From Promethearchaeota archaeon (GTDB taxonomy: Archaea; Asgardarchaeota; Lokiarchaeia; Sigyniarchaeales; SOKP01), in the NCBI GenBank assembly GCA_019058015.1, contig JAHLWH010000205.1, forward strand, positions 1 to 30,472: DNA of 30,472 nt, in the 5' to 3' direction. Made by a program: the position numbers and the translations under genes. Each line of letters starts with the position of its first letter. Within the stretch, counting starts at the first letter, position 1. This document shows, in pieces, positions 15,036 through 21,149 of this stretch. Below the pieces are notes generated by a model. It was not told the DNA's origin. It was given only the letters and a program-made list of their open reading frames with translations, and did no database searches.

Positions 15036-15773
15036 TTGAAATGGCTGCCAAAGTGGGTTGGAAAGGTATATTCGAAATTATGGGCTGAATTTAGAGAAAA
15101 TCTATTTTTTTTTGAAGATGCCAATAAGATTTTGGGAAAAACCACCCCAAATTATTTAAGTGAGTTAAAAAAAGCTCAAGCATTATTTATTTTTAAAAGA
15201 AAAACAAGGAAAAGAATATATCGGCTTGTTCCACCAAACTTATTTTCATTTGCTATTGCCAATAATATAGATCTAGGATGGTTAAAGCAAGGAAGATATT
15301 CCAACATAATCTTATTAGTTTTTTTAAAATTAAAGGATTTTTTTGGTTCTGATTTTTTAAGCCTAGGAATTTTTGGCTCTATAGCTAAAAATATGGCAAA
15401 AAATGACAGTGATATTGATTTTTTTGTAATACTTAAAGACTTGCCAGATAGTATAGGTGAACGAATAAATTTACTTGTAGAGATTGAAGATGCTAAAGAA
15501 ATCAAAGATGAATTAACTTTCTTAAATAAAAACTCAATTTATCCACATTTTAGTTATCATATACGTAAAAAGGATGAATTAGGTTTAAATTTCTTTATAA
15601 TTGATATGGCTTTTGATTTAAAAATTATCTACGATTCTTTAAAGATATTGGAAAATTTCTTATTTGAAATAAATAAAAAAATTAGAGAAAAACATATCCA
15701 AAGAAAATATTTAGATAAAGAGCGCTATTATTTAGATTTAAATATTTCTTTTGGAGAGGTATTTAAGTTTTGA
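15036..15773 (+). CDS. Minimal nucleotidyltransferase (MNT) with N-terminal winged-HTH-like domain; putative antitoxin
   Basis: Pol-beta superfamily motif FGSIAK....DSDIDFFVI. The N-terminal ~70 aa (FFFEDANKILG..YLSELKKAQALFIFKRKTRKRIYRL) look like a wHTH with wing. TTG start with SD. Confidence 0.85.
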   Translation: MKWLPKWVGKVYSKLWAEFRENLFFFEDANKILGKTTPNYLSELKKAQALFIFKRKTRKRIYRLVPPNLFSFAIANNIDLGWLKQGRYSNIILLVFLKLKDFFGSDFLSLGIFGSIAKNMAKNDSDIDFFVILKDLPDSIGERINLLVEIEDAKEIKDELTFLNKNSIYPHFSYHIRKKDELGLNFFIIDMAFDLKIIYDSLKILENFLFEINKKIREKHIQRKYLDKERYYLDLNISFGEVFKF

Positions 15774-16189
15774 ATCAAATAGATTTGGCTAAGGATCATC
15801 TAAATGAATCTCAATTTAGATTTGAGGTTGCTGAACATATTTATAATAAAAATGGTTATGCATTTTGCGTTCGAATATGTCAAGAAGCTGTAGAATTTGC
15901 CTTAAAAGCAGCTTTAAGGCTTATTGGTGTGGATCCTCCTAAATGGCATGATGTAGGTCCATTTTTAAAAGAAAAAATGGAAAGTTATCCTGAATGGTTT
16001 CAAAATAAAATTACCGAATTAGCATTAATTTCAAAGCTGTTAGCTAGTAAAAGGGAGCCCTCGATGTACGGTGATGAGAGAACTAATAAATCTCCTTCAA
16101 GTATGTTCAATAAATCAGATGCAAAAAACGCTTTAAAAAGTGCCGAAATATGTTTAAAAAATGTCAAAGAATTATTTCACCAAATATAA
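15770..16189 (+). CDS. HEPN domain protein (putative toxin partner of MNT)
   Basis: CQEAVEFALKAAL, PPKWHDV, REPSMYG and DAKNAL..AE. Overlaps the MNT stop by 4 nt (TTGA), implying translational coupling. Confidence 0.9.
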   Translation: MNQIDLAKDHLNESQFRFEVAEHIYNKNGYAFCVRICQEAVEFALKAALRLIGVDPPKWHDVGPFLKEKMESYPEWFQNKITELALISKLLASKREPSMYGDERTNKSPSSMFNKSDAKNALKSAEICLKNVKELFHQI

Positions 16190-16262: not shown

Positions 16263-17051
16263 ATGGATAAGCAAGCAGTTTTAATATATATCGCAAAATT
16301 AGCAAAAATGATAATCGATGCAAAACAAACAACCGTTTTGACAGGAGCTGGTATCTCAACTGAAAGTGGAATCCCAGATTTTCGAAGTCCGGGTGGTCTA
16401 TGGGAAAAATATGCTCCAGAGATTTATGCTAATATTCATAGTTTTTTAAAGAACCCTACCAAATTTTGGGAGATGGCAGAAAAAATAGCTCCAAACATTT
16501 TTAACGCTAAACCCAATTCTGCCCATTATGCATTAGCAGAACTAGAAAAAATGAACATGATTAAAGCCATTATCACACAAAATATTGATGGACTTCATCA
16601 AAAAGCTGGATCTTTTATAGTTTATGAAGTTCATGGAAATATCGAGCGCCTTATTTGTTTAGGTTGTAGATCTTCTTATCCCAAAAAACAAGTCATAAAG
16701 CAACTTAAAAAAGAAAAGAATTATCCTCCAATATGTGATATGTGCGGAGCTCCTTTAAAGCCTTCAGTCGTTTTATTTGGAGAGGACTTGCCTAAGTTTG
16801 AATTTTATCAATCTCATGCACTTTCTGAAAAATCAGATTTAATGATTGTAGCGGGTTCTTCCTTAGAAGTTGCACCTGTAAGTGAATTCCCAAATTTAAC
16901 TATTAAATATGGAGGCAAATTGGTAATTATCAATGATATGCCAACACATATGGATAAAAAAGCTGAATTGGTTATTATAGGTAAATTAGGCACCGTTCTT
17001 CCACTTGTTGTTAAAAAAGTTAAGGAATTGCTAAAAAATAAGAATAATTAA
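16263..17051 (+). CDS. cobB: Sir2/CobB NAD-dependent protein deacylase
   Basis: TGAGISTESGIPDFR, TQNIDGLH, EVHG, zinc finger CLGC..CDMC, PSVVLFGE and GSSL.V.P. Confidence 0.95.
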   Translation: MDKQAVLIYIAKLAKMIIDAKQTTVLTGAGISTESGIPDFRSPGGLWEKYAPEIYANIHSFLKNPTKFWEMAEKIAPNIFNAKPNSAHYALAELEKMNMIKAIITQNIDGLHQKAGSFIVYEVHGNIERLICLGCRSSYPKKQVIKQLKKEKNYPPICDMCGAPLKPSVVLFGEDLPKFEFYQSHALSEKSDLMIVAGSSLEVAPVSEFPNLTIKYGGKLVIINDMPTHMDKKAELVIIGKLGTVLPLVVKKVKELLKNKNN

Positions 17052-19268: not shown

Positions 19269-19430
19269 TTAAGTTCAAATTGCAGAAATTATACTTCACT
19301 AAATTGATTTAATAAATATTTTAAAATTTAAGACTTTTATTATCACTAAAAGAAATTCATTACAAAACGGTTATTAAAAAAATTCTAATAATATGCTAAT
19401 AAAATCAGATAATAAAAGAAGATTAAAGTT

Positions 19431-19452
19431 AAGAAAAAAGAAAGAAAAGAAA
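19431..19452 (-). terminator. Oligo-U archaeal terminator downstream of the FrhB-TrmB gene
   Basis: The minus strand reads TTTCTTTTCTTTCTTTTTTCTT about 10 nt after the stop codon. Confidence 0.55.
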
Positions 19453-19462
19453 CACTTTCAAT

Positions 19463-20884
19463 CTAAATCAAATCCATAAATCCTTTGTATCCCATATGCA
19501 TAAGATTATTTTGAATAAAGAGTTTCTCTAAATCAATTAAACCATCCGATTTGAGTTTTTTAATGTTTTTCTGGAACTTGTATATTTCACTCTTGATAAG
19601 CTGAGTTGGATTAATCGGATTATAAACACCGTTAGTTTTTAATATCCATTCTCGTTGCTGTAGCGTATTAAGAACATTATTAATCTCTGTTTCCTCTACT
19701 TTCATTACCTTACTTAACATCGAGATATCTGCATATCCTAAAGACATAAGGGTTGTATAAGTTTTTGCCTCGACCTCGGATACATTCAAAAGTTGTATAG
19801 CAGATATTACTTTCTCATCCATTTTGGTTAATTTCGACTTTTTTCTTAGAGACTCTTTCTCAACTTTCGAGAGATCAATTGTATCAGCAACAGTTATTTT
19901 CCCAGCAGCTACTGCATCATTAAATAGTTTTACACCAATATCAGAGCGAATAATTACACTATTCCAATCATCTGCAGGAGCACCGACACTTCCTACTGAT
20001 ATATCTGCAAAATCAGCAGTGTAATCCTTACAGTATTGACAACTAGGCCAATTATGTATTTTAGTCTCTTTTATTAGAATTTCTTTAACCGACCCATCTT
20101 TCTTATAGATTAAGAATTTACCACGTGAAATGTCAATTTTCTTTACATCATTTATTGGTATTCTAAGTTTTTCTTGAACAGTTTTTCTCATTAAATCATA
20201 TGAATAATTTGAGGAACAATAAAGTCCAATGATTAGTTTAAATTTACCAAGTTTATCTGAGAGAGGGGGACACAATTGGAGTTTTCTTGCCGCTAGGATT
20301 TGGCAAGGCATACCAACAAAAGCAAGTTTTTCGAGTTCATATTCATATATTGCATCTTTATATGTTAATAAACTTGACGCAATAGTATAACGGGAGCCCG
20401 CAGCAGCCAAAACCTCTTCCGGTGTTCTTGCAATAATGGGTTTCGGTTGCCAATTTTCATCCCTACCCGTAAGAAGGGCTCCATCAATTAATCCTGTATT
20501 TAGAGCGTGAATAAGTAGTGTAGAAACCACTCCACCATTTTGAGCTACCTTTAAAACTGCTTCATCTGTGCTTTTTGCGACATTAGCTTTTTGATAATAT
20601 CCTAATAAAGAATTTTTACGAGTTTGACCATTGAAAAATTCTTTCTCAGCCTCTTCTTCTGGAAAATATGTTCTTGCGCAATATTTAAAGCACATAGAAC
20701 ACTCTGGATCGTATTCTAGAAGTTTTGGTTCTTTATCCTTTATATCAATGCGAGGACAAAGTGAAACGCATGTTCCGCAAAGGACACAGAGATCTTTATC
20801 TAAAACGAAGTCATACAAGTCTCGAAATCCGATACCTTCAATACAAGATTGTAAATAATCAATAATTGGCTCTTTTATTTCCAT
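19463..20884 (-). CDS. Coenzyme F420 hydrogenase/dehydrogenase beta-subunit (FrhB/FpoF-like) fused to a C-terminal TrmB-like wHTH
   Basis: Ferredoxin motifs CVLCGTCVSLCP and CSMCFKYC; FrhB motifs QNGGVVSTLL, AAGSRY, GMPCQ, IGLYC, CQYCKD and ADISVG; C-terminal LNVSEVEAKTYTTL...ISMLSK..INNVLNTLQQREWI..YNPINP. Confidence 0.88.
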   Translation of the reverse strand: MEIKEPIIDYLQSCIEGIGFRDLYDFVLDKDLCVLCGTCVSLCPRIDIKDKEPKLLEYDPECSMCFKYCARTYFPEEEAEKEFFNGQTRKNSLLGYYQKANVAKSTDEAVLKVAQNGGVVSTLLIHALNTGLIDGALLTGRDENWQPKPIIARTPEEVLAAAGSRYTIASSLLTYKDAIYEYELEKLAFVGMPCQILAARKLQLCPPLSDKLGKFKLIIGLYCSSNYSYDLMRKTVQEKLRIPINDVKKIDISRGKFLIYKKDGSVKEILIKETKIHNWPSCQYCKDYTADFADISVGSVGAPADDWNSVIIRSDIGVKLFNDAVAAGKITVADTIDLSKVEKESLRKKSKLTKMDEKVISAIQLLNVSEVEAKTYTTLMSLGYADISMLSKVMKVEETEINNVLNTLQQREWILKTNGVYNPINPTQLIKSEIYKFQKNIKKLKSDGLIDLEKLFIQNNLMHMGYKGFMDLI

Positions 20885-21149
20885 TTTTCAATCCTCTTTT
20901 ATTTTTGTTAATTTATTTGATTTTGTTTTTTCTATAATCGTACATGTAATATAACCAAAATGAAAATTTAAATTTTTATAGTTGATAATCCTACACACGA
21001 TCTGCAATATATGATCTATGATCTTGATAATAGAACCTATCAAATTAAAAAACCTTATGAATTTAATAGATAACGTGATTTAAAAGGAACCATTTACTGA
21101 TTTATTAAAAGGACTATATTATTAAATTACAAATCATTTAACGATTGAA

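Follow-up and report, generated by a model that had tools for sequence, protein, structure and literature searches.

The window analysed here is the whole of a 30,472-nucleotide (nt) stretch of DNA from a Promethearchaeota archaeon of the Lokiarchaeia (contig JAHLWH010000205.1), and the gene in question, located at 19463..20884 on its reverse strand, encodes a complete FrhB-type coenzyme F420 module fused in frame to a TrmB-type winged helix and a long helix. With a probability of roughly 0.6, the product is a ferredoxin:F420 electron-transfer module similar to FpoF or to the zeta subunit of an archaeal CO dehydrogenase, paired or docked by a domesticated TrmB tail, and not a classical regulator. 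Most simply, the pairing or docking would take the form of a homodimerising coiled coil. The tail keeps the pairing helix of TrmB proteins and has lost the residues with which they read DNA, and therefore pairing or docking is likelier than a gene switch that senses the redox state. The domain make-up, the fold, the intact cofactor motifs, the origin of the tail, the pattern of conservation, the distribution among genomes and the gene neighbourhoods are shown by the analysis. By type, the protein would be a plug-in F420 reductase of a known kind to which a domesticated regulator module is attached.

The gene comprises 473 codons and a stop codon, starts with ATG, and was delimited by the list of open reading frames (ORFs), the translation, Pfam and NCBIfam matches and a structural model. 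In detail, an N-terminal domain of ferredoxin-like type (residues 1-90; 20615..20884, on the reverse strand like all parts of the gene), recognized by its Fer4 match and its invariant Cys, is followed by the FrhB-type F420 reductase/oxidase core (residues 91-350; 19835..20614; PF04422, PF04432 and PRK09325). A linker with a short helix at 357-364 in the secondary structure of the model (residues 351-369; 19778..19834) leads to the TrmB-type winged helix-turn-helix (residues 370-425; 19610..19777), which is located by PF01978 and by alignments to the TrmB proteins of the same genome and to 3QPH and 5BPD. The chain ends with a long amphipathic helix (426-463) and a short terminal helix (together residues 426-473; 19466..19609), as placed by the model and by conserved residues.

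All Pfam matches lie above their cut-offs: Fer4 at residues 27-44 (23.4 bits, cut-off 21.1), FrhB_FdhB_N (PF04422) at 102-172 (86.3 bits, cut-off 22), FrhB_FdhB_C (PF04432) at 185-335 (139.5 bits, cut-off 23.3) and TrmB (PF01978) at 366-422 (33.9 bits, cut-off 25.6). The two FrhB domains and TrmB are therefore found on one chain, and the complete FrhB-type module joined to a genuine TrmB-type winged helix and helix, which the original prediction had described from the letters alone, is borne out by these scores and by the model. No sugar- or effector-binding domain was found in the Pfam scan of the protein, and the TrmB module forms the C-terminal end of the chain. The AlphaFold2 model of the full-length protein, built on 121 sequences, has a mean pLDDT (predicted local distance difference test) of 88.8 and a pTM (predicted template modelling score) of 0.87. 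As modelled, the tail is a winged helix plus a long helix, with helices at residues 370-382, 387-394 and 398-410, a beta-hairpin at 414-423 and a 38-residue helix at 426-463. The window is marked as archaeal by ribosomal proteins S3Ae and S13/S15, and its G+C content is about 29-30%.

In archaea, it is through FrhB-type modules that hydrogenases, formate, CO and formylmethanofuran dehydrogenases, sulfite reductase and complex I-like enzymes are connected to F420. The protein of the window belongs to the FrhB/FdhB family by both of its Pfam domains, its set of Cys and its fold. The motifs named in the original prediction are all present in the translation, that is, NGGVVS (residues 116-121), GSRY (163-166), GMPCQ (191-195), GLYC (220-223) and CQYC (282-285), and so are the N-terminal Cys motifs (Cys at 33/36/39/43 and 62/65/69). 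Cys194, Cys223, Cys282 and Cys285 of the core are invariant in the 121 members of the protein family, line up with the Cys of FrhB chains and are the probable ligands of the core [4Fe-4S] cluster. On the same sequence grounds, the core is predicted to bind flavin adenine dinucleotide (FAD) and to reduce or oxidise F420. Among the NCBIfam models, the core falls in the FrhB subfamily PRK09325 (276.2 bits, cut-off 269), and it fails the FrhB equivalog TIGR03289 (259.7 bits vs a cut-off of 331.5) and the FpoF models NF040616 (176.7 vs 475, with the match over residues 27-330) and PRK09326 (170.9 vs 444). Because the NF040616 score is so far under its cut-off, the fusion protein is not an FpoF. With phmmer, the core matches FrhB 9r51_B at an E-value of 9.9e-61 and about 40% identity over residues 93-355.

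The best structural match of the model is 8riu_B, with Z 41.6, a root-mean-square deviation (rmsd) of 2.1 Å and 335 residues aligned, followed by 8rja_E (Z 34.8) and then by Fsr and FrhB (Z 29.9-33.7). The seven N-terminal Cys (33, 36, 39, 43, 62, 65 and 69) are invariant in the family; the first motif, CxxCxxCxxxCP, reaches the Fer4 cut-off and the second has three Cys only (62, 65 and 69), so that one [4Fe-4S] cluster motif is complete and a second cluster in this domain is plausible. Over its first 80 residues or so, the protein is similar to the ferredoxin part at the C-terminus of FrhG (3zfs_B, query residues 9-83, E 9.8e-7), and the domain aligns with 8riu_B from residue 22, matching residues 11 onward of that chain. 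On this likeness, it is proposed to be the docking and electron-entry domain.

The two best structural matches are the zeta subunit (8RIU chain B) and FwdI (8RJA chain E) of Candidatus Ethanoperedens thermophilum, which share the order of parts with the fusion at 34-35% identity. [quoted passage not shown] The same text places the zeta gene in the ACDS operon and describes FwdI as the replacement of FwdF in the Fwd complex. The extension of zeta and the tail of the fusion both start near residue 350, but the former has about 20 residues and no winged helix, whereas the latter has about 120 residues and is derived from TrmB. Also, a plug-in reductase of the zeta/FwdI type would be expected to be encoded beside its partner oxidoreductase, whereas the fusion gene of the window has no CO dehydrogenase (CODH) or Fwd genes nearby.

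FrhB itself, the beta subunit of the F420-reducing [NiFe] hydrogenase (9R51, 4OMF/3ZFS and 6QGR), shares the Cys pattern of the fusion core at about 40% identity. It lacks the N-terminal ferredoxin domain and the tail, and the fusion in turn has no adjacent FrhA or FrhG gene. FpoF/FqoF, the F420H2-oxidising input subunit of Fpo/Fqo, has a ferredoxin-like N-terminus and an FrhB core like the fusion; it has no TrmB module, and the window has no Fpo genes. The soluble form of FpoF is described in the available part of PMC9012536 as a ferredoxin:F420 oxidoreductase, and FdhB homologues are there reported within HdrA gene clusters. The ferredoxin:F420 oxidoreductase activity that soluble FpoF has is the one proposed for the stand-alone fusion.

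The modelled tail (residues 354-465) superposes on residues 2-115 of TrmBL2 with Z 13.0-13.3, rmsd 2.2-2.5 Å and 109-110 residues aligned, and on Pyrococcus furiosus TrmB with Z 10.6; both rank above generic winged-helix entries. A profile of the tail matches 3QPH with an E-value of 1e-4 over residues 5-105. The assignment of the C-terminal domain to the winged helix-turn-helix fold, on which the earlier idea of a regulator depended, thus holds. By sequence, the C-terminal 120 residues or so descend from an Asgard TrmB regulator, namely from its N-terminal part with the DNA-binding domain and the coiled coil. In the TrmB regulators (3QPH; TrmBL2, 5BPD; MreA) the homologous winged helix and amphipathic helix are N-terminal, whereas in the fusion they are C-terminal and have no sugar-binding effector domain. 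That domain is present in TrmB and TrmBL1, absent from TrmBL2 and MreA, and not found in the fusion.

In TrmB, as reported in the available part of PMC4158304, Tyr50 of the recognition helix and, to a lesser degree, Asp51 matter for DNA binding, and both are conserved in TrmB, TrmBL1, TrmBL2, VNG1451C and MalR; in MreA, Ser replaces the Tyr and the protein is still a global regulator. Helix alpha5, a coiled coil after the winged helix, drives dimerisation through Phe81/Ile91' and Phe84/Leu88' (same source). These positions were placed on the 121 family members through the profile alignment to 3QPH. The position of Tyr50 (402) has Tyr in 1 member, the commonest residues being Ile (39), Arg (21) and Asn (13), with Lys or Arg in 33. 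Asp is found at the position of Asp51 (403) in 5 members. At the position of Arg48 (400), two before the Tyr, 8 members have Lys or Arg, against 60 with a hydrophobic and 37 with an acidic residue. The window protein has Glu400, Asn402 and Asn403 at the Arg-x-Tyr-Asp contacts of TrmB. On the contrary, R-[IVT]-Y is retained in all five canonical controls, that is, three TrmB proteins of the same genome, P. furiosus TrmB and TrmBL2. The contacts formed by Tyr50, Asp51 and the preceding Arg are therefore lost in the fusion, and MreA is the sole characterised member that is also without the Tyr.

The pairing helix shows the opposite pattern. The dimerisation positions F84, L88 and I91 of TrmB correspond to 430, 434 and 437, which are hydrophobic in 120, 121 and 119 of the 121 members, respectively. 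The long helix has a conserved 3-4 hydrophobic seam, with conserved I430, E433, I434, F437, I441, L452, N459 and N460, and is proposed, by analogy, to be the pairing helix equivalent to alpha5 of TrmB. The original prediction had added as a caveat that the recognition helix is acidic and that the domain may serve dimerisation; with these positions hydrophobic in 119-121 members, the caveat has become the better-supported part of it. Six residues of the tail are invariant (L408, W413, P426, E433, L452 and N459), K374, K395 and R411 are kept in 86-93% of the members, and Lys or Arg stands at position 409 in 58%. Three residues are missing from the wing relative to TrmB and TrmBL2. In 81 of the 121 members the winged helix carries a zero or negative net charge, a figure which alone decides nothing on DNA binding, because one canonical TrmB of the same genome also has a net charge of 0.

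Conservation was expressed as the mean frequency of the top residue per element in the 121 members. It is 0.75 for the FrhB core, 0.63 for the linker (351-369), 0.62 for the long helix, 0.52 for the recognition helix and 0.45 for the last ten residues. Among the structured elements of the protein, only these last residues rank below the recognition helix. In 20 genomes of the same archaeal family, on the contrary, the canonical TrmB has its highest conservation in this helix (0.97 vs 0.84 for the first 20 residues of the long helix). The reversed rank order is informative and not the absolute values, because the canonical control set is far less diverged.

The fusion is real and recurrent. Support across the junction of core and tail, a check put forward with the original prediction, is provided by contigs of two independent studies which span it gap-free (19456-20950 and 19480-20636), and the junction is not an assembly artefact. 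Among 299 relatives, the best 120 have 469-499 amino acids (aa), 55-91% identity and 96-100% coverage of the query; a precomputed PF01978 match is found in 102 of them, and the other 18 have the same length at 99-100% coverage. They are labelled as Promethearchaeota, Lokiarchaeota, Hodarchaeota, Thorarchaeota and Heimdallarchaeota, all Asgard archaea, and are named in public records either 'Coenzyme F420 hydrogenase/dehydrogenase, beta subunit C-terminal domain' or 'hypothetical protein'.

A search with a tail-only profile in 400 Asgard genomes, counted by their best E-value, separated two classes. The strong class (E <=1e-37) is the fusion, mostly in frames of about 470-515 codons, a few being shorter as they are cut by contig ends or an in-frame stop. 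The weak class (E of about 1e-6 to 1e-14, mostly in frames of about 245-345 codons) consists of canonical TrmB regulators, whose alignments span profile positions 5-112 approximately, the long helix included. The raw tally of 257 genomes at E <=1e-5 is too high, because canonical TrmB proteins swell the count. The fusion is present in 49 of the 400 genomes and is not unique to one assembly. It was found in 43/135 genomes of the same archaeal family, in 5/5 of another and in 1/31 of a third, plus one fragment, and its distribution is patchy inside genera (about 23/54 and 11/42 genomes). The gene is usually single-copy per genome.

In species-representative genomes, full-length matches come only from Asgard-type records or from unclassified records of an 'uncultured archaeon'; matches in Bathyarchaeia, Methanomassiliicoccales, Methanotrichaceae and alkane oxidisers end near residue 330-370. 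The tail alone, searched against 1.84 billion representatives, gave 22 matches at E <=0.001, which are full-length fusions or short proteins, and most of the latter look like fragments. In a quick maximum-likelihood tree of the core (96 rows, with rows short of query residues 40-320 dropped and 44 full-length fusions left), the 44 fusion cores form one group, consistent with one change (Shimodaira-Hasegawa-like approximate likelihood ratio test, SH-aLRT, 88). Its sister, a protein of 588 aa, shares the core and ends in a polyferredoxin (support 100), and the next branch holds zeta/FwdI-type proteins without a fusion, from Methanotrichaceae, alkane oxidisers and Methanosarcinales (support 98). 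Hence, after the polyferredoxin-tailed sister, the zeta/FwdI type is the nearest unfused relative of the fusion in this quick tree.

F420 is, by gene content, a cofactor of this lineage and made there. CofE is above its cut-off in 61/61 and CofH in 53/61 genomes of the archaeal family. The genome of the window, a 94% complete metagenome-assembled genome in 283 contigs, has CofD and CofE close together on contig C129 and a second CofE-like gene on C20; no match to CofG was found in it, and CofH reaches merely 38.6 bits (cut-off 374.1). The genomes G146 and G148 of the same genus have CofH at about 453 bits, and the CofG/CofH gap is probably an assembly gap. Scavenging of FO was rejected as an explanation, with CofH above its cut-off in the 53 family genomes, two complete ones of this genus among them. 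The same genome has 14 matches to FrhB_C and at least 11 FrhB paralogs in all, and the TrmB tail is absent from all ten other paralogs that were scanned. The other paralogs lie on contigs C125, C237 (three genes), C131, C10 (two genes), C216, C136, C272 and C68.

Some of these paralogs have other attachments. The one on C131 (912 aa) combines FrhB with Fer4_20 and a GltD-like Pyr_redox_2, and the one on C68 (467 aa) combines FrhB_C with NAD_binding_1 and DHODB_Fe-S_bind. Three paralogs have N-terminal extensions of 135-157 aa with sub-threshold hints of a helix-turn-helix (HTH) only (TrmB 13.8 bits, HTH_DeoR 14.0 bits).

As regards the gene neighbourhood, hydrogenase, formate dehydrogenase, Fpo and Hdr genes were not found among the 23 other ORFs of the window that were scanned, in agreement with the earlier description of a stand-alone gene, and the same ORFs contain no CODH, Fwd or frhA/frhG genes. 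In 47 related loci (the window not included; neighbours within 6 kb), 24 have a gene of Hdr/Mvh type, a gene for an Mpt_N dehydrogenase-like (Mtd-like) protein or a second FrhB gene, and 23 have none of these. Genes of the Hdr/Mvh type occur in 16 loci, as HdrA pieces, MvhD, an HdrD-like CCG protein and the large and small subunits of a [NiFe] hydrogenase; the Mpt_N dehydrogenase-like gene occurs in 11 and a further FrhB paralog in 16.

The proposed mechanism would be as follows. Electrons would pass, reversibly, from reduced ferredoxin or from the Fe-S chain of a partner to the Cys-rich N-terminal ferredoxin-like domain, and from there to the core [4Fe-4S] cluster, FAD and F420. The TrmB-derived C-terminal 120 residues would now serve as a structural module: two copies are most likely paired by the long amphipathic helix, in the manner of alpha5 in TrmB and of the short C-terminal extension in zeta, and the winged helix, its DNA-reading residues gone, would pack on the enzyme or dock a partner. 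We infer F420 and ferredoxin as the substrates, as well as dimerisation and the absence of sequence-specific DNA binding.

Several observations weigh against this interpretation. A helix alone would suffice for pairing, as in the 20-residue extension of zeta, and yet a complete winged helix with its wing is retained across lineages whose modules average 43% identity, with L408 and W413 invariant and K374, K395 and R411 well conserved in it. The winged helix has been retained whole, so it binds something itself, and DNA is the default ligand of the fold. The absence of a redox partner near the gene in the window and in 23/47 loci fits a regulator equally well as a soluble enzyme. The second N-terminal [4Fe-4S] motif holds just three Cys. 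The canonical TrmB control is not matched in divergence (88% mean identity vs 43% for the fusion modules), and the tree is a quick version in which the fusion group, at SH-aLRT 88, was not starred. MreA without the Tyr is still a global regulator, as far as the available part of PMC4158304 goes.

The rival to be taken most seriously, though it is itself unlikely, is a DNA-binding protein whose flavin and Fe-S clusters would let the FrhB module sense the F420/F420H2 or the ferredoxin state and thereby change how DNA is bound by a dimeric TrmB-type winged helix, the recognition surface of which would have been remodelled; it would be a dedicated regulator or an enzyme that moonlights as one. The original prediction had put forward a candidate one-component F420-redox sensor of this kind; its architecture stands, and its function as a regulator is not favoured, with the DNA contacts replaced and the recognition helix least conserved. 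Winged helix, wing and pairing helix are all present in the full TrmB arrangement (Z 13.0-13.3 with TrmBL2, 10.6 with TrmB; PF01978 above its cut-off), but the Tyr, Asp and Arg contacts are gone in nearly all members, with a hydrophobic (60/121) or acidic (37/121) residue in place of Arg48. Purifying selection on the tail, seen in the six invariant residues and in K374, K395 and R411 (86-93%), suits a regulator, as do Lys or Arg at 402 in 33/121 and at 409 in 58% of the members; the net charge of zero or less in 81/121 and the shortened wing do not. Lineage-specific operators could explain a variable recognition helix, and MreA regulates without the Tyr (PMC4158304, in its available part); nevertheless, this helix evolves fastest in the fusion, opposite to the canonical TrmB of the same archaeal family. 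The usually single-copy gene stands alone in the window and in 23/47 loci, as a regulator might, but its presence is patchy even inside genera (about 23/54 genomes in one), its nearest relatives and the sister protein are enzyme subunits, and the 5' region in the window has no fold beyond shuffles.

In Rex (an NADH/NAD+-sensing winged-helix repressor), PutA and BirA, a cofactor or enzyme domain controls a DNA-binding domain on the same chain, and these proteins keep functional, conserved DNA-reading surfaces. In the fusion this surface is degraded, and there is no homology to Rex. A precedent is DsrD, a winged-helix protein long suspected of DNA binding and later reportedly an allosteric activator of sulfite reductase.

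Docking to a different protein without a homodimer, in which the tail would recruit the F420 module to a partner, for instance another Asgard redox protein with an HTH-type domain, and so build up a modular electron-bifurcating assembly of Hdr/Mvh type, is doubtful. It would account for the Hdr/Mvh-type genes beside the fusion in 16/47 loci, for the cluster of a DUF7347-HdrA-MvhD protein in 5 loci and for the 621-638-aa FrhB paralog that adjoins the fusion in 8, with MvhD/FlpD in 5/6 and a DeoR-like HTH in 6/6 of those scanned. However, the HTH matches are under the cut-off in 5/6 of these neighbours (16.4-19.8 vs 21 bits), no such partner is nearby in the window or in 23/47 loci, and self-pairing is the simpler explanation of the conserved 3-4 seam at the equivalents of the homodimer contacts of TrmB. 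A non-specific DNA or RNA tether that places the enzyme on the nucleoid, like the chromatin protein TrmBL2, or a functionless relic, is very improbable. TrmBL2 is the best structural match of the tail, and a variable recognition surface would suit non-specific binding; against it, TrmBL2 itself retains R-T-Y, and the low net charge speaks against binding of the backbone. A relic is contradicted by the invariant residues and by the retention of the tail in 44/44 full-length members of the tree and in the best 120 of the 299 relatives.

Regarding previous work, no paper describing the FrhB and TrmB fusion was found, although supplementary tables of Asgard genomics might list this domain combination; PMC11237513, in its available part, treats the Fsr fusion and not that of FrhB with TrmB. 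The fusion occurs in archaea whose electron-transfer metabolism is relevant to models of eukaryote origin and biochemically almost untested. If pairing or docking is true, a DNA-binding domain would clearly have been turned into a structural part of a redox enzyme, and the gene would mark an uncharacterised F420-linked enzyme. If the protein instead senses the redox state, F420 would be linked directly to transcription in some Asgard archaea, and the protein would be the first known F420-sensing transcription factor; no characterised counterpart of such a link is known.

In the window, the gene downstream of the fusion on the same strand, 194 nt away, is DUF6125/ATC_hydrolase-like, and the upstream, divergent gene encodes a Kre9_KNH-like membrane protein; radical SAM, Sir2, URO-D-like and methyltransferase genes are located further out. 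In three related loci (L009:7639-9063, L010:7638-9059 and L019), a gene for a 474-aa MFS_2 transporter lies between the fusion and the DUF6125-like gene. With 96-97% identity, their fusion proteins are closest to that of the window, and the transporter gene is missing at 19269-19462 of the window.

Other recurrent neighbours in the related loci are a GlcD-like FAD oxidase, methylmalonyl-CoA mutase with its B12 subunit and MeaB, an ACT-domain protein, an ADP-forming acyl-CoA synthetase-like protein, FeoB and AsnC-type regulators; the genes for the mutase, the ACT-domain protein and the acyl-CoA synthetase neighbour the fusion in a few loci.

The FrhB paralogs of 621-638 aa which adjoin the fusion in eight loci are found at L017:7935-9818, L025:3457-5364, L034:3918-5801, L037:3936-5852, L038:3949-5814, L039:3930-5801, L045:3262-5178 and L056:349-2232. 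In the six that were scanned, an MvhD/FlpD domain is N-terminal in five, and a DeoR-like HTH match near residues 200-250 is present in all, followed by 2x[4Fe-4S] and FrhB. The HTH reaches its cut-off of 21 only in L034 (24.0 bits), the other five being at 16.4-19.8 bits. So, by sequence, an HTH-type domain appears to be embedded in a clear electron-transfer protein. The HdrA-MvhD fusion proteins that cluster in five loci have about 850-1040 aa and an N-terminal DUF7347, which is winged-helix-like (40.4 bits, cut-off 27.6); an example is L017:1190-3736. In L017, L031 and L034 the gene adjoins the large and small subunits of an Mvh-type [NiFe] hydrogenase. In L011, L012 and L013, an HdrA-like protein is seemingly split into two same-strand pieces, an N-terminal one with NAD/FAD binding and one with Fer4/Pyr_redox, the ORFs of about 133-181 aa and about 449-453 aa lying upstream of the fusion gene. 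This could be due to an in-frame stop such as selenocysteine, to a frameshift or to a true split.

Upstream of the fusion gene, a conserved frame of 26-37 codons with an Ile/Val/Leu run at its end is present in 16 of the 43 related loci whose upstream DNA extends over 400 nt or more. It lies about 120-270 nt upstream, in L016, L020, L022, L023, L027, L029, L030, L032, L033, L042, L044, L048, L053, L054, L055 and L058, and 14 of these 16 are of the type without a redox neighbour. A small membrane peptide is one possible explanation for this frame. In the window, a 7-codon frame (MICNLII; 21114..21137, reverse strand) occurs 253 nt upstream at the matching offset, with the same frame in L009, and is possibly a remnant or due to chance. 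A leader peptide or RNA switch was rejected for the window gene, which has only this 7-codon frame, no RNA fold beyond shuffles in 20885-21140 (z 0.09) and no Rfam match in its 5' region. Also, a 51-codon Ile-rich frame which starts with TTG and ends 4 nt before the ATG was taken as a chance frame in DNA of 29% G+C. A scan for sigma-70-type promoters, not designed for archaea, gave 11 vs 11.2 expected from shuffles, and 0 terminators. The sole run labelled RNA-Seq, which is probably DNA, gave one contig of 256 nt.

Elsewhere in the window, at 15036-16189 on the forward strand, a nucleotidyltransferase gene (Polbeta/NTP_transf_2) and a HEPN gene form a pair with frames overlapping by 4 nt. By domain content, the pair has the layout of a HEPN/MNT-type toxin-antitoxin system, and it is followed by a Sir2-family gene at 16263-17051.

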